64,000 nucleotides of DNA from Candidatus Staskawiczbacteria bacterium RIFOXYB1_FULL_37_44 (GCA_001822065.1 MHPJ01000001.1:6870-70869); one strand, 5' to 3'; positions 3,036 to 25,149 are shown, numbered from the stretch's first letter. Notes: generated by a model not told the origin, from the sequence alone. Numbers and translations: made by a program.

Positions 3036-3563
3036 ATGAAAATATCAATTACCGATGAATTTCTTTGGGATGTTTATAAGCTTTTAGAAAAAGCAGGCGA
3101 TGTCGCAGATTCTGCATTTAAACCCATAACGATGAGAAATTATCTGCCGGGAGAAGAATGTCCAATTTTTAAGAAATATAAGCACGATAAAAATAAAAGA
3201 AAATTTAGTAATTTAATGTATTATCTTAAAAAGAATGGTTATATCAAAGCAAAAAAAATAGAAAATGGGCAAGGAATAATGATTACAAAGGAGGGAATAG
3301 ATAAGGCGCTAAAAGCAAGTTTTGTTTTAGACGGACATAAAAAGAGAAAAGACGGAAAATGGGTTATGTTAATTTTTGATATACCTCAAAAGCAAAAAAC
3401 AGCTAGAATGTTGTTGCGAAGTATTTTAAGTAATTTAGGGTATAAATTGTTTCAGCAAAGCGTTTGGATTTCACCTTATGATATTTCAGAAAAAACAGAG
3501 AAATTGTTGCAACTGCATTCCCTGGAAAATTATATTAAAATATTTTTAATTGAAAAGCTATAA
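3036..3563 (+). CDS. PaaX-like regulator (N-terminal wHTH plus C-terminal PaaX_C/Cas2-like ferredoxin-fold domain)
   Basis: 'DGKWVMLIFDIPQKQKTARMLLRSILSNLGYKLFQQSVWISPYD' matches the W-x-[IV]-x-F-D-[IV]-P...R...L...GF..LQ.SVW..P signature of PaaX C-domains and Cas2-fold proteins. Confidence 0.6.
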   Translation: MKISITDEFLWDVYKLLEKAGDVADSAFKPITMRNYLPGEECPIFKKYKHDKNKRKFSNLMYYLKKNGYIKAKKIENGQGIMITKEGIDKALKASFVLDGHKKRKDGKWVMLIFDIPQKQKTARMLLRSILSNLGYKLFQQSVWISPYDISEKTEKLLQLHSLENYIKIFLIEKL

Positions 3564-3580
3564 TATTTTACGCTTATTGG

Positions 3581-3616
3581 CATCTTGTAAATAGTAAAGC
3601 TTTACTAAATACAAGA
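3581..3616. repeat. 36-bp internally palindromic repeat, copy 2
   Basis: 36/36 identical to 2950-2985. Begins 17 nt after the stop of the PaaX-like gene. Confidence 0.95.
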
Positions 3617-3658: not shown

Positions 3659-3686
3659 TTGACATTTTGTGTTGAGGGTATAATAT
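3659..3686 (+). promoter_or_regulatory. Sigma-70-like promoter candidate for the HD-domain gene
   Basis: TTGACA (3659-3664), 16-nt spacer, TAATAT (3681-3686). An overlapping TATAAT has a spacer that is too short. Confidence 0.35.
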
Positions 3687-3741
3687 GAAAATGTTGCATC
3701 TTGAAAATAAAAACACCTAAATACAATACAGGAGGAGCGCC

Positions 3742-4341
3742 TTGGAAAATCTGATTAAAAGAATCGTACAAAGAGTCAGGCCGATTTATTTTGGCAGCAA
3801 ATTTTATCCAAAGACATGCTTTAAGCACGCTTTGCGCGTGTCAGAGTTTGCAAAAGATTTTTCTGTGAAACTTGGCGCCAGCCGGTTTATTTCCGAAGCT
3901 GGCGGATTGTTGCATGATATAGGAGCTGCAATGTATGGCCGCGATAATCATCATATCACGGGAGCGCAGGAAGCAACCCTTGTTCTTTTGGACTGCGAAT
4001 GCCCGCTGGATGCTGTCGGCCCAATTGTTAGCGCCGTATATTCTCACAGGGGAAGCGAAAAAATTCCTTTCAAAATTCCCGAAGCAAAGTGCGTGGCGGC
4101 GGCTGACGCGAAAGATCACTTCCTGTTTTTGGAAGAAGTGTGGCAGGCTCAAATGGGTTTGGGACGCACAGAATTGGAGGCGTATACAAGAGTTTCAGAA
4201 GAGTTGAAAAACGATTGGGAAAAAACCGATCCCGAAATCAAGCCCTTGCTTGATGGCGCATATGAAAAGGCAAGGCAAAAACTTCTAAAAATCGCTCTTG
4301 CAAACGGGCGCCATAAAAAAAGCCGCAAGGCGGCAAGGTAG
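3742..4341 (+). CDS. HD-domain phosphohydrolase
   Basis: 'HALRVSEFA' ... 'LLHDIG' H...HD motif. TTG start preceded by AGGAGG. GC-richer than the flanks. Confidence 0.6.
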   Translation: MENLIKRIVQRVRPIYFGSKFYPKTCFKHALRVSEFAKDFSVKLGASRFISEAGGLLHDIGAAMYGRDNHHITGAQEATLVLLDCECPLDAVGPIVSAVYSHRGSEKIPFKIPEAKCVAAADAKDHFLFLEEVWQAQMGLGRTELEAYTRVSEELKNDWEKTDPEIKPLLDGAYEKARQKLLKIALANGRHKKSRKAAR

Positions 4342-4348
4342 CTATAGC

Positions 4349-4384
4349 AGCCGTTGGTTTCTCAAGATTTCAGCGGCTTTTTCA
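4349..4384 (+). terminator. Possible intrinsic terminator
   Basis: agccgttg / cagcggct stem (one G-U pair) with a large loop, followed by tttttc. Confidence 0.4.
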
Positions 4385-4423
4385 TTGAATTTGAAAAAAA
4401 ATTAGGATATTATAAAATATATT

Positions 4424-5143
4424 ATGATAAGTATAATTATTCCAGCTTTAAATGAGGAGAAATATTTGCCGTTGCTTTTAGAGTCAATAAAAAAGCAAGA
4501 TTTTAGCGACTATGAAATTATTGTGGCTGATGCTGGATCAACAGATAAAACTTTGGAAATTGCCAAAAATTATGGCTGTAAAATTGTTGGCGGAGGCTTG
4601 CCGGCTAAAGGCAGAAACGAAGGGGCAAAAGTTGCCAGCGGAGAAATTTTGTTTTTTTGCGACAGCGACGTAATTTTAACAGACAATTTTTTTGAAAAGG
4701 GCTTGGAGGAATTTAAAAAAAGAAACCTTGATTTAGCCAGCGTAAGGCTTATTCCTGTGCCCAAAAATAAAGTTTCTTTTTTTCTTGTAAATATTTTTTA
4801 TAACTGGCTGATTATTTTGACAGAAAATATTTTGCCTCACGCGGCCGTGGGTATTTTTGTGAAAAAAGAAATTTTTGATAAAACAGGCGGGTTTGACGAA
4901 ACAGTAAAATTATCTGAAGACCACTATTTTGCAAGGCAGGCAAAAAAATTGCTCAAAGCCAATTTTGGAATTTTAAGATCTGTTGAAATTTTTGTTTCAG
5001 ACAGGCGGTTTAAAACCGACGGCTGGATGTCTGTTGGAACAAGATATTTTCTTTGCGAGCTTTATTCAATTTTTATCGGACCGGTAAAAACAGATATTTT
5101 TAAGTATAAATTTAACCACTATAAAGATAATAAAAAATTATAA
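4424..5143 (+). CDS. GT2 family glycosyltransferase
   Basis: 'ISIIIPALNEEKYLP', 'IIVADAGSTDKT', and DSD in 'FFCDSDVIL'. Confidence 0.8.
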   Translation: MISIIIPALNEEKYLPLLLESIKKQDFSDYEIIVADAGSTDKTLEIAKNYGCKIVGGGLPAKGRNEGAKVASGEILFFCDSDVILTDNFFEKGLEEFKKRNLDLASVRLIPVPKNKVSFFLVNIFYNWLIILTENILPHAAVGIFVKKEIFDKTGGFDETVKLSEDHYFARQAKKLLKANFGILRSVEIFVSDRRFKTDGWMSVGTRYFLCELYSIFIGPVKTDIFKYKFNHYKDNKKL

Positions 5144-5159
5144 AAAATAAAAATTTATC

Positions 5160-6455
5160 ATGAGCATGTATAAATTGCCAGAATCAAATATTCCGGAAAT
5201 GAAGAAAAAAATTATGGAGTTCTCAAAAAACAGAATTTTTTGGGGCGGAGTTTTTGTGCTGGTTGCGGGGAGCGCAATTGGCCTTGGCGCGGGTTTTGCG
5301 GTTTTAAAATATTTTCCTTCGCAAACGCAAGTATTTTTGCAATATTTCCAAGCAAAAGAAATTGCCCAGCCAACAATTAAAAGCCAGCCTGCTCTTGGAG
5401 AATATACTTCAAATGTTTCTTACGAGCAGGCAATAATTGACGCGTCAAAAGCTGTTTCTCCCTCGGTGGTGAGCATTGTAATTTCAAAAGACGTGCCGAT
5501 TTATGAACAGCAATATGTAAATCCATTCGGCCCGAATTCTCCGTTTGAATTTCTAATTCCTCAACAAGTTCAAAACGGAACGCAGTTGCAGGAAGTCGGG
5601 GCGGGATCTGGTTTTATTGTTTCAGCAGACGGTTTGGTTTTGACAAACAAGCACGTGGTTTCAGACAAACAAGCAGATTATACGGTTTACACAAGCGACG
5701 GAGAAAAATATACGGCAAAAGTTTTGGCCTTAGATCCTGTGCAAGATTTAGCTGTGATAAAAATTGAGGCAAATGGAAAAACATTTCAAAAAGCTGTAAT
5801 TGGAAACTCTTCGGGAATACAGCTCGGCCAGACTGCCATTGCCATTGGCAACGCGCTCGGGCAATTTAGCAATACGGTTTCCGTGGGCATTATTTCCGGG
5901 CTTGCCAGGACAATTTCTGCTTCAGACCAAATTGGAAGCGTTTCGGAAACCTTGGAAGGAATTATCCAGACAGACGCGGCAATCAACTCGGGAAATTCTG
6001 GCGGGCCATTGGTGAATTTAAAAGGAGAAGTTATTGGAATCAACACAGCAATGGCGCGGGGAGCGCAAAGCATCGGTTTTGCCATTCCAATAAATATGGC
6101 GAAGAAAGACATTGAGCAAGTTACAAAAACAAATAAAATTGTTTACCCTTTTTTAGGAGTAAGATACGCGCTTGTAGATGATAAAATAAAGCAAAAATAT
6201 AAATTATCAGTTAATTATGGAGCATTTGTGATTAGCGGGAGCAACGGCGAAACCGCGATAACCGCGGATTCTGCCGCAGACAGGGCAGGAATTAAAGAAA
6301 AAGATGTTATTTTGGAAATTAACAAAGAGAAGATTGCTTTAAACAATTCAATGGCAACAATAATTCAAAAATATAATCCCGGAGATAAAATAACTTTACA
6401 TATTCTGCGCGATAATAAAGAAATGGATGTTGACATAATATTGGGTTCGCGCTAA
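5160..6455 (+). CDS. htrA: HtrA/DegP-family serine protease (S1C) with C-terminal PDZ domain
   Basis: N-terminal TM helix. Triad context 'TNKHVV', 'DLAVIKI', 'GNSGGPL'. PDZ-like tail. Confidence 0.85.
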   Translation: MSMYKLPESNIPEMKKKIMEFSKNRIFWGGVFVLVAGSAIGLGAGFAVLKYFPSQTQVFLQYFQAKEIAQPTIKSQPALGEYTSNVSYEQAIIDASKAVSPSVVSIVISKDVPIYEQQYVNPFGPNSPFEFLIPQQVQNGTQLQEVGAGSGFIVSADGLVLTNKHVVSDKQADYTVYTSDGEKYTAKVLALDPVQDLAVIKIEANGKTFQKAVIGNSSGIQLGQTAIAIGNALGQFSNTVSVGIISGLARTISASDQIGSVSETLEGIIQTDAAINSGNSGGPLVNLKGEVIGINTAMARGAQSIGFAIPINMAKKDIEQVTKTNKIVYPFLGVRYALVDDKIKQKYKLSVNYGAFVISGSNGETAITADSAADRAGIKEKDVILEINKEKIALNNSMATIIQKYNPGDKITLHILRDNKEMDVDIILGSR

Positions 6456-6570
6456 ACTAAAAATATGAATCAAATCAGCCGTAAAACATCATTTTGGTTT
6501 TATTTTAGCTTCTTTAAGAAAGAGGTTGGTTTGAGAATTCTGAAATAAAACAAAAGTAATTAGAAAATTC

Positions 6571-6600
6571 AAACGAGCCTCTTTCCAGAGGCTCGTTTTA
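6571..6600 (+). terminator. Perfect 12-bp hairpin (aaacgagcctct-ttcc-agaggctcgttt)
   Basis: Lies between htrA and the small GC-rich ORF. The T-tract is weak, so it could be a terminator or a leader structure. Confidence 0.45.
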
Positions 6601-9746: not shown

Positions 9747-9780
9747 CAAAAAACGGCTCAGTACGTTGAGCCGTTTTTTG
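9747..9780. terminator. Bidirectional terminator between convergent genes
   Basis: An A-run, then acggctca-gtacgt-tgagccgt, then a T-run. Sits between clpB (+) and the ORF at 9787-10563 (-). Confidence 0.8.
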
Positions 9781-9786
9781 ATTGCT

Positions 9787-10563
9787 TTACGGATTTACCG
9801 TCATTGATATTGTGGCTATCGCGCTGTCTAAACTGCCGTCGTTCACTTTAAATGTAAAGCTGTCTGATCCCGTAAAATCTGTTGCCGGAAAATAGGTTAG
9901 ATTTGGAACTGTTCCAGACAATGTGCCGTGGGTTGGGTGTGTTAAAACAGTAAATGTTAGCGCTAAATTTTCAGGATCTGCGCCGGTCAGAGTTATTGCT
10001 TTTGAGGTATTTTTAGTTACGGTTACGCTTTGGGCGTTGGATGTTGGGGCCTGATTGTTAACCTGGACATTTCCCAGTGCGTCAATAAATTTTTGAAGGG
10101 CTGTTTGTTTTGCTGAATTTCTTTGCTGTATTGCAACAAGCAAATCGGCAAGGTATGTTTTTAATGATGAAATTCTTGCAGACTGGTTGCTTGAAGAATT
10201 TATTGCCAAAGTAAATTTGTCTCTCGCGGATTTTTTTGCTGTTTTAAATGCTGTATTCGCATCTTTTATAGCTTGGTTATAAGCTGTTCTTGCAGATTTT
10301 AATCCATTGTTATTTAAGAGTAAATTTACAGAAATTGCAGGCATATTGTCTCCCGATTCTGATCTGCCGATTATATCGCCGGCTATGTTTCCAAAAACTC
10401 TAAACGCGCCTTTTTGCATACTATTGTGCATATTGTTTATACTGAAAGATATTCGGTCTTCACGACCATTATCTTTTGCTTGCGTCGCCGAAGGCAAAGC
10501 GTTAACCCCGATCAAAGCGGCTGCTAAAAGAACAATTGTTGATTTTTTTATTTTGTTTATCAT
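9787..10563 (-). CDS. Secreted protein with C-terminal cadherin/Ig-like domain
   Basis: Signal peptide 'KKSTIVLLAAALIGVNALPSATQA'. C-terminal 'ITLTGADPENLALTFTVLTHPTHGTLSG...DSFTFKVNDG' is typical of bacterial cadherin-like/Ig-like repeats. Confidence 0.6.
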   Translation of the reverse strand: MINKIKKSTIVLLAAALIGVNALPSATQAKDNGREDRISFSINNMHNSMQKGAFRVFGNIAGDIIGRSESGDNMPAISVNLLLNNNGLKSARTAYNQAIKDANTAFKTAKKSARDKFTLAINSSSNQSARISSLKTYLADLLVAIQQRNSAKQTALQKFIDALGNVQVNNQAPTSNAQSVTVTKNTSKAITLTGADPENLALTFTVLTHPTHGTLSGTVPNLTYFPATDFTGSDSFTFKVNDGSLDSAIATISMTVNP

Positions 10564-10623
10564 TTTTTATTTAGATTATTTTTGTTAATATTATATTAAC
10601 GACCTTTATAATATATGTGACGG

Positions 10624-11124
10624 ATGAACTATCAAACTCTTTTTTTGGATGCTTATGAAAAATACGCAGACGATATTTATCGGCATTGCTATTTTAGGGT
10701 GTACAACAAAGAATTAGCCGAAGATATAACGCAGGAAACTTTTATAAAAACGTGGAAATATATAATAGAAGGCAAAGAAATTCAAAACATAAGGGCGTTT
10801 CTGTATAGAGTGGCGGTAAATTTGATTATTGACAATAGCCGGAAGAAAAAAGAGTTGGCGGGTGATGAACGTCTTAATAATATAAGGGCAGGCGAGGATA
10901 CAGAAGATAATATTTTTAACCGTTTTGACGCCAATAGAATAGTAAAACTGCTTGACAAGCTGGCAGAAAACCAAAAGCAGGTAATGGTAATGCGATATAT
11001 AGATGAGTTGAAGCCATCGGAAATTGCAGATATTTTGGGAGAGTCGCCAAACGCGGTTTCTGTGAGAATTAATCAAGCCACTAAAAAATTACGGGAAATC
11101 ATAAATAAAAAAAATGAACAATAA
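10624..11124 (+). CDS. ECF-type sigma-70 family sigma factor
   Basis: Region 2 'LAEDITQETFIKTWKY'. Region 4 HTH 'LKPSEIADILGESPNAVSVRINQATKKLRE'. Confidence 0.85.
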   Translation: MNYQTLFLDAYEKYADDIYRHCYFRVYNKELAEDITQETFIKTWKYIIEGKEIQNIRAFLYRVAVNLIIDNSRKKKELAGDERLNNIRAGEDTEDNIFNRFDANRIVKLLDKLAENQKQVMVMRYIDELKPSEIADILGESPNAVSVRINQATKKLREIINKKNEQ

Positions 11125-11938
11125 CATTAAAAAAATTTTAAAACCAGCCAGGCGAATAAAACTGGAAAAAGAAATTAAAGCCTCTATAAAAGGCGGGGTT
11201 TTGATGTTTATGAAAAATAATCCCTTGACAGAAACTCCAAAATTTGGCTTTTGGAAAATAATATTTTCTCAAAAATTAAAACCCGCTTACATTTCAATAT
11301 TGTCTTTAGTGGCAGTTTTGCTGGTGTCTGGAGCAGTGAGCGCGCAGGCCAGTTTGGCGCTTCCCGGAGATATTCTTTATCCCGTGAAAGTTGGAGTTAA
11401 TGAAAAGGTCCTGCAAGTTCTGGCTTTTTCCGACCAGGCGAAAATAAAATTAAGCGTCCGTTTGGCTGAAACGCGTTTAAAAGAAGCTGAAAAATTGGTG
11501 GTGGAAAACAGGATAACCAAAGACAACCAAATGCAAATTAATAATAATTTTAGCGCAAAAGCAGATGAGGTTTCAAAATCTATAAACAAACTAAATAGAG
11601 AAAAAATGGAGAATAGCGCGCAGAAAATCGCTGATGATTTTAATAAAACTTTAGAAATCCATACCAAAGTTTTAGAAAAAATCCAGCAGGAGAAAGATAA
11701 ATCTGACAAAGCGCGCGATAAAAATCGGGAAAATGTAGACTCTATAATAAACAGAGTAAACAGCGTCAGGGATAAAATTAACGCTGATATAAAAGAAAAT
11801 AAAATCAAAAATGAAAAGAAAGCAGAAGAAATAAGGCAAAAAGCAAATGAGCAAATTCAAAAAATAAAAGATAAGATAGAAAGCAACAAAGCAGAAAATA
11901 ATACTGAAAATAATATAGAAAATAATACTGAAAAATGA
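11114..11938 (+). CDS. Single-pass membrane protein, DUF5667-like (putative anti-sigma partner)
   Basis: Overlaps the sigma gene by 11 nt. TM helix 'AYISILSLVAVLLVSGAVSAQA'. 'LPGDILYPVKVGVNE...RLAETRLKEAEKL' followed by a charged coiled-coil tail. Confidence 0.6.
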   Translation: MNNNIKKILKPARRIKLEKEIKASIKGGVLMFMKNNPLTETPKFGFWKIIFSQKLKPAYISILSLVAVLLVSGAVSAQASLALPGDILYPVKVGVNEKVLQVLAFSDQAKIKLSVRLAETRLKEAEKLVVENRITKDNQMQINNNFSAKADEVSKSINKLNREKMENSAQKIADDFNKTLEIHTKVLEKIQQEKDKSDKARDKNRENVDSIINRVNSVRDKINADIKENKIKNEKKAEEIRQKANEQIQKIKDKIESNKAENNTENNIENNTEK

Positions 11939-11979
11939 GCTATACGTAATTTTCACGATCGTAAATTTCTTGTATAGCT
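11938..11979. repeat. CGATCG-centred palindromic repeat, copy B1
   Basis: agctatac-gtaattttcacgatcgtaaatttctt-gtatagct, with perfectly complementary 8-bp outer arms. Aligns with 12176-12216 and 12822-12862. Confidence 0.85.
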
Positions 11980-12005
11980 GGGAAAACTTGAAAAATAATA
12001 AAAAA

Positions 12006-12040
12006 GGCGTCCCGATCCCATAAGAGGGAGGGACGCTTTT
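12006..12040 (+). terminator. Rho-independent terminator
   Basis: ggcgtccc...gggacgc stem followed by tttt. Sits downstream of the gene at 11114-11938. Confidence 0.7.
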
Positions 12041-12175
12041 GGTCTTTCGCGCAAGTCGGCGTACATTGCCTAAACCTCAAAAATTGCGAGGAATTCTTCG
12101 ACTGTTTTGCAAAAATTATCAAACAATTTCTTGTGATGTCACGACTGTGAGAACTAAGATTTAACTGTATTTTAG

Positions 12176-12216
12176 TTATACAATAAATTCACGATCGTAA
12201 ATTTTACGTATGGCTG
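12176..12216. repeat. CGATCG-centred palindromic repeat, copy B2
   Basis: ttatacaataaattcacgatcgtaaattttacgtatggctg, immediately upstream of a promoter-like motif and the PaaX-like gene. Confidence 0.8.
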
Positions 12217-12217
12217 A

Positions 12218-12232
12218 TATTTGTGATAAAAT
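12218..12232 (+). promoter_or_regulatory. Extended -10-like motif tatttgtgataaaat
   Basis: This 15-mer is identical to 12922-12936 and contains TG-n-TAAAAT. It lies 2 nt after repeat B2. Confidence 0.45.
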
Positions 12233-12252
12233 ATTATAATAACTATTTTAAG

Positions 12253-12792
12253 ATGGCTGCTTTAAAAGAAAAAATATTATTATTGCTTTTTGGCGGGCTT
12301 GCTTTTGGTTGCGCTTATACTCCGCAAAAACAGTGGAAAGTTATTAAAACTATATCTGTTGAATGGAAAAAGATAGATAAAAAAGAATTATTTGCAGAAA
12401 TTCACAGATTGTATAGGTCAAAATTGGTGAAAAGAATAACCAATTCAGACGGAACACTCACGTTTATTTTAACTGAAAAAGGTAAATTAAGGGCCCTTAC
12501 TTATAGTTTTGAACATATGAAAATAGAAAAGAAAGACTGGGACGGCAAATGGCGATTTATTGTTTTTGATGTTCCCGAAAAGTTTAGAACCGGACGAGAT
12601 GCGCTAAGATGGAAAATTAAAAAACTTGGATTCTATGAATTACAAAAAAGCGTTTTTATTTTTCCTTATAAATGCGAAGACGAGATAAATTTTATTATAG
12701 AATTTTTTGGAATAAGAAAATATGTCAGGTATGGAATAATAGATTTTATTGATAATAAGGCGCACTTAAAACAAATTTTTGGGCTAAAATGA
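12253..12792 (+). CDS. PaaX-like regulator (wHTH plus PaaX_C/Cas2-like fold), paralogue of 3036-3563
   Basis: 'DGKWRFIVFDVPEKFRTGRDALRWKIKKLGFYELQKSVFIFPY'. The ATG at 12253 is preferred over the tracked GTG at 12223, which lies inside the promoter-like motif. Confidence 0.6.
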   Translation: MAALKEKILLLLFGGLAFGCAYTPQKQWKVIKTISVEWKKIDKKELFAEIHRLYRSKLVKRITNSDGTLTFILTEKGKLRALTYSFEHMKIEKKDWDGKWRFIVFDVPEKFRTGRDALRWKIKKLGFYELQKSVFIFPYKCEDEINFIIEFFGIRKYVRYGIIDFIDNKAHLKQIFGLK

Positions 12793-12821
12793 GAAAAATT
12801 ATAAAATAATCAGAAAAAACC

Positions 12822-12862
12822 AGCTATACGATAAATTCACGATCGTGAAAATTACGTATGGC
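12822..12862. repeat. CGATCG-centred palindromic repeat, copy B3
   Basis: agctatacgataaattcacgatcgtgaaaattacgtatggc. The core ttcacgatcgtgaa is a perfect 14-bp palindrome. Confidence 0.85.
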
Positions 12863-12921
12863 AGGTTTCTTTATCTTACCCTTACCTTGCCTTTTTATTT
12901 ATTTTTTGTTTATATTTTTTG

Positions 12922-12936
12922 TATTTGTGATAAAAT
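12922..12936 (+). promoter_or_regulatory. Extended -10-like motif tatttgtgataaaat, giving a near-leaderless start at 12943
   Basis: Identical 15-mer to 12218-12232. TAAAAT ends 6 nt before the ATG of the nuclease gene. Confidence 0.45.
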
Positions 12937-12942
12937 GTAGTA

Positions 12943-13512
12943 ATGAATTTCTGGGAAAAGAATAAATTATTTTTTGCAATAATTTTAGGAGCTGTAATAA
13001 TTGGAATTTTTGTTTATTTTAGCTTGGAAAATCAAAAAAAGATTGCTTCGTCGCTCGAAGCTCCTCGCAATGACGTTGTGGGAAAATCCGTGGAGGACGG
13101 GCCTCCCCTGACTGGAACTCCAATAGCTTCCGCGTGCGGGGTACATGAAAATACGTTTGTTACAAAAGTAATTGACGGCGATACGGTTGTGGTTGAGGGA
13201 GGATATCATGTGCGGCTTTTGGGAATGGACGCAGACGAAAAAAATTATCCTTGCTATGAGCCGGCTAAAACCCGACTTGAAAATTTAGTTTTGGGAAAAA
13301 TGGTAAAATTGGAAAAAGACAGAACAGATTTGGATCAGTATGGCAGGTGTTTGCGGTATATTTTTATCGGAAATACAAATATTGGCGCGCAGCTGGTAAA
13401 AGAAGGCATGGCAATTGCCAGATTTTATAATCCCGACATAAAATATAAAACAGAAATTGCCGAGGCCGAAAAGCGGGCGCAACAAAACAAAGCCGGCTGT
13501 AAATGGAAATGA
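12943..13512 (+). CDS. Membrane-anchored staphylococcal-nuclease-like (SNase/thermonuclease) protein
   Basis: N-terminal TM helix. 'VIDGDTVVVEGGYHVRLLGMDADE', 'GRCLRYIF' and 'NIGAQLVKEGMA' are SNase-fold motifs. Confidence 0.8.
   Translation: MNFWEKNKLFFAIILGAVIIGIFVYFSLENQKKIASSLEAPRNDVVGKSVEDGPPLTGTPIASACGVHENTFVTKVIDGDTVVVEGGYHVRLLGMDADEKNYPCYEPAKTRLENLVLGKMVKLEKDRTDLDQYGRCLRYIFIGNTNIGAQLVKEGMAIARFYNPDIKYKTEIAEAEKRAQQNKAGCKWK
13041..13075. repeat. GC-rich 35-bp element (gattgcttcgtcgctcgaagctcctcgcaatgacg) in frame in the nuclease gene
   Basis: 33/35 identical to 13757-13791. It is the reverse complement of the left arm of 16406-16438. Confidence 0.85.
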
Positions 13513-14957
13513 AATTTTTTGAAAAAAATCAAATTTTCGCATTTTTGGCGAGTCTTTCTTGTACTCTTGTTTTAGGCTTTTTTGTTTGGATCGCGTTTTT
13601 GAGTTCAAATAATTATTCTTTTATTTTTAACAAGGTTTTGGGGCAAGCCAATAAAATCGGTTATAAATTTTTTTCGGCAACAGTGAGCTTGCCTAATACC
13701 CAAGTTGAGGAAATAGTTCAGGAAACTGATTCTGCGCAAGATATAGTGCCAAATGAGATTGCTTCCTCGCCCGAAGCTCCTCGCAATGACGAAACAACAG
13801 AACAAGAAAGGCAAAATTTGCTTGATGACATTGCGGAAAAATTAGATGTAATTCAGCAAAAAGTTGATGAACTTGTTGCGCAATCAAAAACCGCAGACGA
13901 ACTGAAAATGGAAGAAGAAATTAAAAAAGACGAGGAAAAAAATACGGTTGTTTGCGCAGGGCAAATAAATATAAATACAGCTTCCGCAGAAGAATTGGAT
14001 AAAATGGCTCAAGTTGGTCCGGTAACGGCTCAAAAAATAATACAAGCCCGTCCATTTTATTCGCTTAATGATTTGTTAAGAGTGGGCGGGATAGGAGAAA
14101 TAACTTTACGAAAAATAATAGAGCAGGGGTGCGCTTATGTTGAATTTGTGACGCCGGCCGTTGCGCCGGCGCAGGTTGTTTATCCAAAAATTTTAATTTC
14201 AGAAGCGCAAATTTTGCCGATTAATCAAAGATTTGTCGAGCTTTACAACTCAAATTCAACAGATATTGATTTGACCAATTGGTATTTGCAAAGGAAAACA
14301 GCAACGGGCGAGGATTATTCAAGTTTTGTTACAAAAAATGATTTTGCGGGAAAAATAATTTTGGCAAATTCATATTTTTTAATTTCCCGGCAAATTGAAA
14401 ATGCCGATATTTTGCAAGAAATAATTTTAAGCGATAACAATTCTTTGGTTCTAAAAAATCCGGCGGGAGATACTTCTGATATTATGGATACCGCCAGCCC
14501 AAGCTCTGGCCAAAGTCTTTGCCTGCTGGACGCATGGGAAGTTTGTTCGCCAACTCCCAAAGCTTCCAATACAGTTTTTACTGAGCCGACTCCCCCGTCC
14601 TCAGATTCAACTTCTCCTGATCCCGATGTAATTTTACCAAGCATTGTAATATATAAAGTAATCGATATGGGCGGAGAATTTAGTATTGATTTGGCATTTT
14701 CAGAAAAAGTAAAGTACGAAATAATTATTGAATTTGGCGAAACTGAAATCAAAAAATGGTCTGGCGAAGCAAAAAATCCTCAACCAAAAATTTGGGATGG
14801 AAAAGATTCTTCGGGCACAATTGTTCCAGATGGCGTTTACACAATTAAAATTGAGATTACAGATTATACTCCAGAAAAAAATTTTGTTACTGACACAAGC
14901 AAAACAATTATAATTGATAATTCTCCAAACCTTGACTCGGGAGATTATAATCAGTAA
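13503..14957 (+). CDS. ComEA-like HhH DNA-binding protein with a lamin-tail domain and a FlgD-Ig-like C-terminus
   Basis: TM helix. 'ININTASAEELDKMAQVGPVTAQKIIQARPFYSLNDLLRVGGIGEITLRKI' (ComEA HhH). 'ISEAQILPINQRFVELYNSNSTDIDLTNWYLQRK' (LTD). 'IWDGKDSSGTIVPDGVYTIKIEITD' (FlgD-Ig-like). Confidence 0.75.
   Translation: MEMKFFEKNQIFAFLASLSCTLVLGFFVWIAFLSSNNYSFIFNKVLGQANKIGYKFFSATVSLPNTQVEEIVQETDSAQDIVPNEIASSPEAPRNDETTEQERQNLLDDIAEKLDVIQQKVDELVAQSKTADELKMEEEIKKDEEKNTVVCAGQININTASAEELDKMAQVGPVTAQKIIQARPFYSLNDLLRVGGIGEITLRKIIEQGCAYVEFVTPAVAPAQVVYPKILISEAQILPINQRFVELYNSNSTDIDLTNWYLQRKTATGEDYSSFVTKNDFAGKIILANSYFLISRQIENADILQEIILSDNNSLVLKNPAGDTSDIMDTASPSSGQSLCLLDAWEVCSPTPKASNTVFTEPTPPSSDSTSPDPDVILPSIVIYKVIDMGGEFSIDLAFSEKVKYEIIIEFGETEIKKWSGEAKNPQPKIWDGKDSSGTIVPDGVYTIKIEITDYTPEKNFVTDTSKTIIIDNSPNLDSGDYNQ
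13757..13791. repeat. GC-rich 35-bp element, second copy, in frame in the ComEA-like gene
   Basis: gattgcttcctcgcccgaagctcctcgcaatgacg. Encodes 'IASSPEAPRNDE', compared with 'IASSLEAPRNDV' in the neighbouring gene. Confidence 0.85.
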
Positions 14958-16159: not shown

Positions 16160-16672
16160 ATGGAAGATAAAGAAGATAAAATTGTTAAGCTGACAAACGC
16201 GGTTTATAATTTACTGGAATTTTTTCCCCAAGATCCATTAAAAATAAAGATAAAAGATAAGGCTTTGGCAATTTTGGAAAACCCAAATTTTAAAGATGTT
16301 GATATTATTTTGAATTATTTGAAAATTGCAAAATTTCAAGGCTGGCTGAATTCGGTAAATTATTTAATTATTGTTGGAGAGTATGAAAAACTGGCGGTGG
16401 GGCTTCGTCATTGCGAGGAGCGTAGCGACGAAGCAATCCAGAGTGTTAGACTCGCTCGCAATGACGGGGACAAACTTACTCCAAGGCAAACCAAAATTCT
16501 GGAATTTTTAAGAAAAAATAAAAAAGCGCAGGTTATGGACTTACAGGTGGTTTTGCCAAACATCACAAAAAGGACAATAAGGCGGGATTTAGATGAACTT
16601 TTGAAGATAGGACAAATTGAGAGAGATGGGACATTTAATCAAATTGTTTACAAGATTAAGGTGTCCTATTGA
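16160..16672 (+). CDS. Two-domain protein: helical N-domain plus DeoR-type wHTH
   Basis: 'LTPRQTKILEFLRKNKKAQVMDLQVVLPNITKRTIRRDLDELLKIGQIERDG'. The interdomain linker is formed by a GC-rich palindromic insert. Confidence 0.6.
   Translation: MEDKEDKIVKLTNAVYNLLEFFPQDPLKIKIKDKALAILENPNFKDVDIILNYLKIAKFQGWLNSVNYLIIVGEYEKLAVGLRHCEERSDEAIQSVRLARNDGDKLTPRQTKILEFLRKNKKAQVMDLQVVLPNITKRTIRRDLDELLKIGQIERDGTFNQIVYKIKVSY
16406..16466. repeat. MITE-like GC-rich element with 12-bp terminal inverted repeats (cgtcattgcgag ... ctcgcaatgacg), in frame in a CDS
   Basis: The arms at 16406-16417 and 16455-16466 are exact reverse complements. Encodes 'RHCEERSDEAIQSVRLARNDG'. Confidence 0.85.
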
Positions 16673-24432: not shown

Positions 24433-25149
24433 ATGAGAAAAGTGGAAAAAAAACTTAATAGTTTTAAGGCAGTAATTTTGGCTGGCGGGCAGGGGACTCG
24501 TTTGTATCCGATAACAAGAGAAATACCAAAGCCGCTACTTCCGGTAAATAAAAAGCCGATTATTAATTATTTGGTTGATTTATTTCATTCTTACGGAGTA
24601 AAAGACATTGCCATTTTGATCAGTGAAGATCAGTTTGAGGATTTTGTCTGGTGGAAAAAACGTTATTATCCTAAAAATAATATTTTGCTGAAAAAAGAAA
24701 AGGAGCCGTTAGGAACTTTTGGCGGACTTTTTTTTCTAAAGAATTGGGTCGGGAAAAATTTGTTCTTTTTTACTAATGGAGATGAATTGAAAGAAATTAA
24801 TTTATTTAAAATGGCTGAATTCCATAAAAAAATAAATCCTATAGCTACCGTAGCATTGGTTGAAACATCAAATCCTTGCGAATACGGAGTAGCGGTTTGT
24901 GATTCGAATTTTGTAAAAGAATTTATAGAAAAACCCAAAAATCCGTTATCAAACTATGTGAATTCCGGTATTTCCTTATTTTCACCGAAAGTCTTTGATT
25001 ATCATCCTGGACCCAAATTTTTAATGTACGAAAAAGATTTATTTCCAATTTTATCGAAGGAAAAAAAATTGGCTGGTTTTAAATTCAAGGGTAAATGGAT
25101 AGACACTGGCACATGGGAGAGATACAGTAAAGCTTTAGATATGTGGTAA
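24433..25149 (+). CDS. Sugar-1-phosphate nucleotidyltransferase (mannose-1-P guanylyltransferase-like)
   Basis: 'AVILAGGQGTRLYPITREIPKPLLPV'. First gene of a block that contains gmd and fcl. Confidence 0.7.
   Translation: MRKVEKKLNSFKAVILAGGQGTRLYPITREIPKPLLPVNKKPIINYLVDLFHSYGVKDIAILISEDQFEDFVWWKKRYYPKNNILLKKEKEPLGTFGGLFFLKNWVGKNLFFFTNGDELKEINLFKMAEFHKKINPIATVALVETSNPCEYGVAVCDSNFVKEFIEKPKNPLSNYVNSGISLFSPKVFDYHPGPKFLMYEKDLFPILSKEKKLAGFKFKGKWIDTGTWERYSKALDMW

Follow-up and report, generated by a model that had tools for sequence, protein, structure and literature searches.

The palindrome-flanked gene and its protein

We analyzed a 64-kb stretch of DNA (the window) from Candidatus Staskawiczbacteria bacterium RIFOXYB1_FULL_37_44, a member of Patescibacteria (candidate phyla radiation, CPR), in which a small gene, here called B (12253–12792, + strand), is surrounded by three copies of a long palindrome that we consider as candidate operators of the protein it encodes. 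The product is a 179-aa protein predicted to consist of a winged helix and a Cas2-like (PaaX_M) domain, and its paralogue, gene A, is located in the same window within palindromes of its own.

The three palindromes of gene B are ~42 bp long and share the core TTCACGATCGTRAA. The initial annotation had placed two of them upstream and one downstream of the open reading frame (ORF), and they were indeed found at those positions: B1 at 11938–11979 (no strand assigned; GAGCTATACGTAATTTTCACGATCGTAAATTTCTTGTATAGCT), B2, the proposed operator, at 12176–12216 (+ strand; AGTTATACAATAAATTCACGATCGTAAATTTTACGTATGGCT) and B3, a putative second cognate site, at 12822–12862 (+ strand; CAGCTATACGATAAATTCACGATCGTGAAAATTACGTATGGCA). 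Searching the 64 kb with the core TTCACGATCGTGAA and allowing up to two mismatches returned B1, B2 and B3 only, with 0.10 matches expected by chance and three matches reached in 0 of 100 shuffles. The relaxed generic site pattern WWWNNNRCGATCGYNNNWWW returned the same three matches and no others. B1 begins directly 3′ of the stop codon (TGA, 11936–11938) of a gene for a DUF5667 protein (11114–11938), and B3 lies 30 nt past the stop codon of gene B. These two copies match each other better in inverted orientation, being 91% complementary over 43 nt with the CCAG/CTGG flanks included. B1 is an extra, ‘solo’ copy: relatives with a single upstream copy, such as those represented by loci L084 and L081, lack a counterpart. 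As RNA, B3 would form a long hairpin followed by a U-rich stretch, and the regions of B3 and B1 (11936–12050 for the latter) fold into long hairpins with z-scores of −3.3 and −4.2, respectively. A separate terminator hairpin after B3 (GGCAGGT..ACCTTGCC) was considered and dropped, because folding lengthens the B3 hairpin instead.

The predicted promoter of gene B is interwoven with B2. Its −35 element, TTTACG (12203–12208), lies inside the right arm of the palindrome and is followed by a TG-extended −10 box (TGATAAAAT), TAAAAT at 12227–12232, which is part of the 15-mer TATTTGTGATAAAAT (12218–12232, + strand). As had been noticed initially, this 15-mer is present twice; the second copy (12922–12936, + strand) matches it exactly (chance expectation 0) and stands 6 nt before the ATG of an SNase-like gene. 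The mRNA of that gene is probably leaderless, given the ATG 6 nt past a TG-extended −10 box (12922–12945), and its start (TGATAAAATGTAGTAATG) has the same leaderless-type layout as the promoter of the regulator itself in relatives. In the closest relatives, whose proteins are 76–82% identical to B, the palindrome is followed after 12 nt by TG-extended TAAAAT, or a near variant, and after another 6 nt by the ATG, and by this box-to-ATG spacing the regulator mRNA is predicted to be leaderless; the window has ~12–15 extra nt between the −10 box of gene B and the ATG. At B loci further removed, TGnTAnnAT is the sequence of the outer right arm itself. Likewise, the commonest distance between the palindrome centre and the ATG in the A family is 28 nt, so that an outer arm resembling a −10 box comes 9 nt ahead of the start codon. 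Overall, the upstream palindrome, as read from these promoter predictions, carries or abuts the promoter of its gene, which often appears to be leaderless.

Protein B and a protein of Candidatus Staskawiczbacteria RIFOXYD2_FULL_37 share 100% sequence identity. Both B and A match PaaX_M (PF20803, ‘PaaX protein central Cas2-like domain’) well above the cut-off of 24 bits (78.2 and 69.0 bits, respectively), and they are 32% identical to each other, in the C-terminal 106 aa only. The AlphaFold2 model of B (predicted local distance difference test score, pLDDT, of 78.8) displays three helices and a β-hairpin wing (residues 3–75), followed by a ferredoxin-like β-α-β-β-α-β unit. E. coli PaaX (8a39) is the top PDB match of this model, with a probability of 0.99 over an alignment of 149 columns, and the next fold matches, Cas2 and VapD, cover the C-terminal half. 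Pfam detects the N-terminal domain of PaaX in neither A nor B, and there is no match to the effector domain PaaX_C (PF08223), the two proteins ending at 175 and 179 aa, respectively, versus ~300 aa for PaaX. Scores against the PaaX equivalog TIGR02277 (B, 29.8 bits; A, 25.8 bits) are below its cut-off of 264.55, and no paa genes are found nearby, the neighbours in the window coding for an ECF sigma factor and for DUF5667, SNase, ComEA-like, HD and glycosyltransferase proteins. Matches to Cas2 also remain under the cut-offs, both for PF09827 (16.8 bits; cut-off 23.8) and for TIGR01573 (18.2 and 21.7 bits; cut-off 24.5). Furthermore, Tandem Repeats Finder reported nothing with the period or copy number of a CRISPR-like array in the 64 kb, and neither cas1 nor other cas genes were seen among the Pfam-scanned neighbours, a scan that covers a minority of the window's proteins. 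Judging from these matches, protein B is a truncated PaaX-like protein and neither PaaX nor Cas2. In public records some orthologues are named ‘CRISPR-associated endonuclease Cas2’ and others ‘DNA-binding transcriptional regulator PaaX’, with the cut-off of neither family being reached; the Cas2 label is probably a misnomer.

Gene A (3036–3563, + strand), which encodes the 175-aa PaaX_M protein, is bracketed by an exactly repeated 36-bp palindrome with an AAGCTT centre, CATCTTGTAAATAGTAAAGCTTTACTAAATACAAGA, unrelated to that of locus B. The upstream copy, A1, is located at 2950–2985 and the identical downstream copy, A2, at 3581–3616 (both + strand). The promoter has the same layout as at locus B, with the −35 element TTTACT (2970–2975) in the right arm of A1 and the −10 box TAAAAT (2993–2998) after it. 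A degenerate third copy, read by eye at 3696–3730 (+ strand), keeps the arms CATCTTG.AAATA and TAAATACAA around a shortened centre. It lies just past a near-consensus promoter, TTGACA-N17-TATAAT (~3661–3689), of an HD-domain gene (3742–4341). Since the degenerate site directly follows this promoter, the HD-domain gene may be a real target of paralogue A. Another A-like match, at 25127, is not a palindrome and was rejected.

Conservation and protein–site covariation in Patescibacteria

To place the window in a wider context, we compiled 80 loci with B-type orthologues from one-genome-per-species assemblies of Patescibacteria and 80 metagenome loci with A-type genes. Sequence identity across the lineages is 55–85% within family A and within family B. 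An unbiased scan for palindromes (20-nt arms, at least 16 pairs) found 78 of them near the B-type gene (−350 to +200; 45 kb) and 21 in the other 532 kb, which corresponds to a 44-fold higher density near the gene. Almost all of the near-gene palindromes (72/78) are centred on CGATCG or on one of the hexamers CTATCG, CTATAG, CGGTCG, CGACCG and CGGCCG. When the B centre pattern was imposed, the density amounted to 3.19/kb near the gene and 0.021/kb elsewhere (534 kb, 80 genomes), a difference of ~150-fold. At least one B palindrome is present at 73 of the 78 loci with room on both sides, and 57 of them have copies on each side. The layout of the window, two copies upstream and one downstream, recurs at L023, L035 and L070 and apparently at L036, where the second upstream copy was read by eye.

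The A family follows the same plan, with 124 palindromes near the gene (2.8/kb) and 31 elsewhere (0.11/kb). Its palindromes are 36 bp long, versus 40 bp in the B family, and most have one of six fully symmetric centre hexamers (105/124), namely, AAGCTT (54), CGGCCG (31), CAGCTG (8), CGATCG (6), AACGTT (4) and CAATTG (2). The initial suggestion that each paralogue owns its repeat family, made from this window, thereby extends to the phylum: the pairing of paralogue and repeat is kept over the 80 B and 80 A loci, with different lengths and different centres. Collectively, the comparison suggests that two ancient paralogue families share the bracketed layout across Patescibacteria and that protein and palindrome change together.

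Several individual loci deserve mention. A-type and B-type genes are often only a few genes apart on one contig (e.g. COU96_00625 and COU96_00645). L051 contains two B-type paralogues 1.5 kb apart (3929–4480 and 6020–6574), each with its own bracketing palindromes, which have similar outer arms (TCACTTA) and different inner parts. CGATCG-type palindromes without an adjoining PaaX_M gene are found at L001 (~4831), L021 (~3642) and L063 (~1824); one of the three comes after fusA, another adjoins gatB and another is located upstream of a helicase-like gene. The solo copy of L001 has the inner sequence TTCTACGATCGTAGAA, as do the gene-flanking copies in the same genome; its outer arms are different and perfectly paired.

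Within each family, residues of the protein follow bases of the palindrome. Covariation was expressed as mutual information, with average product correction, between columns of the protein alignment and palindrome positions; when sites were shuffled among loci, the maxima were 0.32–0.35. The strongest pair in the A family (0.74) links residue 59, where the recognition helix ahead of the wing begins, with bases −16/−15 (Lys with AC, Asn with CT). Residue 118 of A, just after FDIP in the Cas2-like domain, is linked with bases −3/−2 (Glu with CG, Gln with AA; 0.44), and residues 116, 128 and 141 also follow the palindrome centre. In the B family, residue 112 covaries with base −4 (Arg with A, Lys with G; 0.52, one of the top two B pairs) and residue 116 scores 0.49, both residues being located in helix 1 of the Cas2-like domain. 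Moreover, B proteins have an invariant Glu at the position equivalent to A residue 118 and a CG-type centre, so that the rule of Glu with CG applies to both families. The proteins of the window conform to these rules: A has Asn59 and Gln118 with ATCTTG...AAGCTT, and B has Arg112 and Asp116 with A at −4. The alignments thus indicate that recognition-helix residues follow the outer arms and Cas2-like residues follow the centre. We find this pattern persuasive, as it appears domain-consistent and was seen twice independently; it backs the protein–operator co-evolution proposed at the outset. The distribution of conserved residues points the same way. Of the 42 invariant residues, 31 are in the Cas2-like half, where the Asp of FD[IV]P never varies, and the winged helix is more variable. 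A conserved Cas2-like half facing the conserved centre and a variable winged helix facing the variable arms would fit the covariation.

Proposed operators, rival explanations and neighbouring genes

Taken together, these data suggest that the three palindromes are cognate DNA-binding sites (operators) of protein B, and that the latter is an autorepressor with a geometry similar to that of E. coli PaaX; we put the probability of this reading at roughly 0.6. Two properties expected of an autoregulatory repressor were found: a binding-site-like palindrome overlaps, in silico, the promoter of its own gene, and the site covaries with putative DNA-reading residues (0.74, 0.52, 0.49 and 0.44). We propose that a two-fold symmetric dimer would bind the ~40-bp duplex, because the site of E. 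coli PaaX, which represses its own promoter, has the same size. The paired Cas2-like domains would sit over the conserved centre RCGATCGY, the A/T tracts at ±8 to ±12 may aid bending or wrapping of the DNA, and the two winged helices, ~15 bp out on each side, would read the outer arms (GCTATAC/GTATAGC in this clade). As B2 holds the −35 element and abuts the TG-extended −10 box, a protein bound to it should cover the promoter and block RNA polymerase, and gene B would repress itself. B3 and B1 might serve as second operators that enable co-operative binding or a loop around the ~0.6-kb gene; another likely option is that they silence the mirror-image promoter box which a symmetric operator would create on the opposite strand. 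The gene, its promoter and two operators form a self-contained unit, and the neighbouring nuclease gene lies outside it.

Several observations weigh against this interpretation. The whole case is comparative, with putative binding and putative repression, and our covariation measure ignores shared ancestry. B1–B3 are among the less perfect palindromes of the family, and about a quarter of the B-family centres are asymmetric (CTATCG, CGGTCG). Autorepression offers no standard role for a downstream copy so close to the stop codon of its own gene (most often 22 nt away in the A family). Sites are found almost only at the protein's own gene, so the protein would regulate little else, which is odd for families so conserved. 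Finally, the 18–20-bp arms are entirely different between genomes and yet up to 20/20 self-complementary, and a comparison of two copies within a genome yielded 40 double compensated changes versus ~11 expected, next to 174 one-sided changes (clean cases of compensation are L075, L022, L024, L026 and L089).

The retained self-complementarity and the compensated changes would also be expected if the palindromes acted as hairpins, either in RNA (as a 3′ untranslated region stabiliser or in processing or termination) or in extruded or single-stranded DNA, with a single protein molecule placing its Cas2-like domain on the loop and its winged helix on the distal stem. This explanation could account for the downstream copy, which lies between the stop codon and the transcript end, as B1 does behind its upstream gene, and it is in line with the folding of the B3 and B1 regions and with the RNases among the Cas2/VapD relatives (by the names of the fold matches). 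Mismatches on the coding strand are more often G.T than A.C (105 versus 73, p = 0.02), but this excess is weak and, as an RNA-hairpin signature, not convincing: 241 of the 419 mismatches are neither, leaving no strong RNA signature. Furthermore, the upstream copy is outside the gene's own transcript, since the −10 box comes after it and relatives are predicted to have a leaderless mRNA, and its outer arm also provides promoter boxes. The A family has six symmetric versions of the innermost 4 nt, bases that a hairpin would have to leave unpaired, and two-fold recognition of duplex therefore fits these centres better than recognition of an unpaired loop. The palindromes do not resemble intrinsic terminators either, their arms being AT-rich and most copies having no T-run (U-tract) after them; in a few lineages, e.g. 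L030 and L046, A-run and T-run flanks are present, and in L084 and L086, as after B1, separate terminator hairpins follow the downstream copies. As for the retained pairing, correction of quasi-palindromes by template switching could preserve the symmetry of long palindromes with no selection for a hairpin. We infer that the duplex is recognized and not a hairpin, and regard the hairpin explanation as unlikely.

A bolder possibility, for which we see a rather slim chance, is that gene and palindromes constitute an autonomous element whose protein does more than repress, its Cas2 fold reading, and perhaps cutting or pairing, the palindrome centre on an extruded cruciform or hairpin. If so, it would represent an unrecognized site-specific DNA-handling system built on the Cas2 fold and widespread in Patescibacteria, and might bear on how Cas2 came to handle duplex DNA.

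A similarly slim chance is given to the initial reading in which the shared 15-mer and the bracketing palindromes put the regulator and the nuclease/ComEA-like operon under common control. The 15-mer is duplicated beyond chance, B3 is ~90 bp upstream of the −10 box of the SNase-like gene (12943–13512, + strand), an SNase-like gene also adjoins the orthologue at L089, and at the sister locus the gene that follows paralogue A has a degenerate A-type site at its promoter. However, the 15-mer is outside the palindrome and represents a promoter core of a type common to the promoters of orthologues in relatives. Moreover, SNase homologues were not found at the 80 distant B loci and do not adjoin the orthologue at L081–L084 or L086, and at L089 the gene is on the other side, upstream of the palindrome rather than downstream as in the window. 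The order in close relatives is ClpB, palindrome, gene, palindrome, LTD/ComEA-like, radical SAM, DeoR-like and sigma factor, and this synteny led us to reject the nuclease and ComEA as conserved partners. The downstream palindrome keeps its distance to its own stop codon and not to the start of the next gene; indeed, in the A family the former distance is fixed, whereas the latter varies from −19 to 241 nt. Co-control is thus not supported as a general feature, although it may yet apply to this one genome.

Least probable of all is a mobile or selfish cassette, in the sense of the ‘cassette-specific ends’ suggested initially, with the palindromes as ends or recombination sites and a Cas2-like domain that cuts or joins DNA through its invariant FD[IV]P Asp (cf. 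RAYT/REP, integron attC): the unit is compact (in the A family, ~9 nt separate the upstream palindrome from the ATG and ~4 nt the stop codon from the downstream one), distant genomes have unrelated genes directly beside it (126 clusters for 150 neighbours), rearrangements occur among close relatives (the place of the nuclease varies, and three genes are inserted upstream in the window) and solo palindromes exist (L001, L063), but such a cassette is unlikely because the repeats are not dispersed (3 copies at one locus in 64 kb and ~0.02/kb elsewhere in the sampled 534 kb), the identity within each family fits a vertically kept cellular gene, and the gene order from ClpB to the sigma factor is stable in the 76–82% identical relatives; nor did profile scans reveal a transposase or integrase domain, and no target-site duplications were noticed.

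The neighbourhood of the operators has some peculiarities of its own. Between ClpB and the regulator, the window (9750–11938) contains genes for an Ig-like secreted protein (minus strand), an ECF sigma factor and the DUF5667 protein, while in the relatives L081, L084 and L086 ClpB adjoins the regulator directly. B1 stands at the right-hand edge of this extra three-gene block; a B-like copy at the ClpB end, marking the insertion, was looked for and not found. Directly before B1, at 11894–11934, there are 3.4 copies of a 12-nt tandem repeat, GAAAATAATACT, which gives rise to the ENN(T/I) repeats at the C terminus of the DUF5667 protein. The 30 nt ahead of B1 and the 30 nt ahead of B3 are ~75% alike, possibly by chance in AT-rich DNA. 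A GC-rich repeat (..GCTTCGTCGCTCGAAGCTCCTCGCAATGACG) occurs in-frame in three genes, SNase-like (13035–13075), ComEA/LTD-like (13751–13791) and DeoR-like (16406–16424, minus strand), adding a common peptide (e.g. IASS(L/P)EAPRND), and resembles a small repeat element of the intragenic kind.

The ~200-bp segment between B1 and B2 had initially been described as holding no trusted ORF. That description stands, and the spacer, 196 bp long, can now be explained in part. At 12005–12040 (no strand assigned) there is a GC-rich hairpin, GGCGTCCC..GGGACGC, with an A-run on one side and a T-run on the other (fold of 11936–12050, z = −4.2), which is predicted to be a strong bidirectional intrinsic terminator ending the ECF-sigma/DUF5667 operon; a simple terminator scan missed it because its stem is bulged. 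Next to it, a block of ~70 nt (12041–12110, minus strand) is conserved by alignment with the ClpB–palindrome spacer of L084 (CTAAACCTC.AAAAT.GC.A.GAATTC.TCG; L084:250–290). A promoter-like GTGACA-16-GATAAT (12142–12115) and the terminator (12040–12005) would delimit a candidate minus-strand small RNA of ~100 nt, which we consider uncertain, its fold z-score being only −2.0. Rfam returned nothing at gathering thresholds over the whole window and chance-level matches only in 11850–12300, and no tRNA or tmRNA genes were found in the window. Two spacer ORFs were rejected by eye: a 60-aa one on the minus strand, which runs through the terminator, and a 41-aa one on the plus strand, which is not conserved in L084.

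Comparison with known regulators and Cas2-fold proteins

Patescibacteria have tiny genomes with few regulators, and their gene control is almost unstudied; here, two families come with a readable cognate site. They also offer testable rules, which connect residue 59 with the outer-arm dinucleotide, the residue that follows FD[IV]P (Glu or Gln) with the centre (CG or AA), and residue 112 (Arg or Lys) with the base at ±4 (A or G). The data point to a Cas2-fold domain that would read bases in duplex DNA, a role described in no paper that we found. Likewise, literature searches on PaaX-like proteins and palindromes in Patescibacteria returned no paper describing the arrangement.

As to Cas2 and VapD, the C-terminal domain of the A and B proteins shares with them the Cas2 fold, a motif of the type ..V.FD[IV]P......R..L...GF...Q.SVF and the strand-1 Asp, but here a predicted winged helix precedes it in the same chain. 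Within Cas1–Cas2, duplex DNA is bound by the Cas2 dimer. The residues that covary with the palindrome centre are at the junction of strand 1 and helix 1, the same part of the fold in which N10, R14 and R16 of E. coli Cas2 contact duplex DNA (PMC8390960). Alignment with E. coli Cas2 by hhalign did not include the strand 1/helix 1 region, and the comparison with R14 and R16 is therefore an analogy by fold position only.

Repetitive extragenic palindromic (REP) sequences with their REP-associated tyrosine transposases (RAYT), as well as integron attC sites, are hairpin-forming repeats that bracket genes and are recognized by their structure. The present loci resemble them in that palindromes lie on both sides of a gene and retain their self-complementarity, with compensated changes between copies, although their sequence varies. 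By contrast, we see here no dispersed repeats and no tyrosine transposase or integrase, and the same conserved gene is always inside, in a stable position in close relatives.

Repressors such as GalR (OE/OI), DeoR and lambda CI (OL–OR) co-operatively use two separated operators. The loci studied here likewise have two or three copies of a site hundreds of bp apart around a promoter, which may be the reason for the downstream copy. Unlike in those systems, the second site is behind the regulator's own stop codon, and a loop would enclose the regulator gene alone. No helical-phase constraint is seen: from locus to locus, the upstream as well as the downstream copy differs widely in its distance to the gene.

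The closest counterpart is PaaX itself, the phenylacetyl-CoA-responsive repressor of E. coli and Pseudomonas (8a39, 3l09; TIGR02277), with which the A and B proteins share the Cas2-like middle domain, preceded, as predicted by the model of B, by a winged helix. E. coli PaaX binds a 39-bp inverted repeat, TGATTC-N27-GAATCA, and, through steric hindrance, keeps its own promoter, Px, repressed (PMC9493321). Both systems have a long inverted-repeat site of ~39–40 bp, which here is a predicted operator, and repression of the own promoter, established for PaaX, is proposed here. PaaX, however, has the inducer-binding domain PaaX_C, which the 175–179-aa proteins lack. Moreover, the sites described here are full palindromes with a conserved centre that bracket the gene, the promoter is of a leaderless type, and the families are, as far as seen, confined to Patescibacteria. 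Overall, comparison with these systems suggests a PaaX-like autorepressor with three unusual traits, namely, putative operators on both sides of its gene, symmetry of the site despite sequence drift, and a Cas2-fold domain that apparently reads bases.

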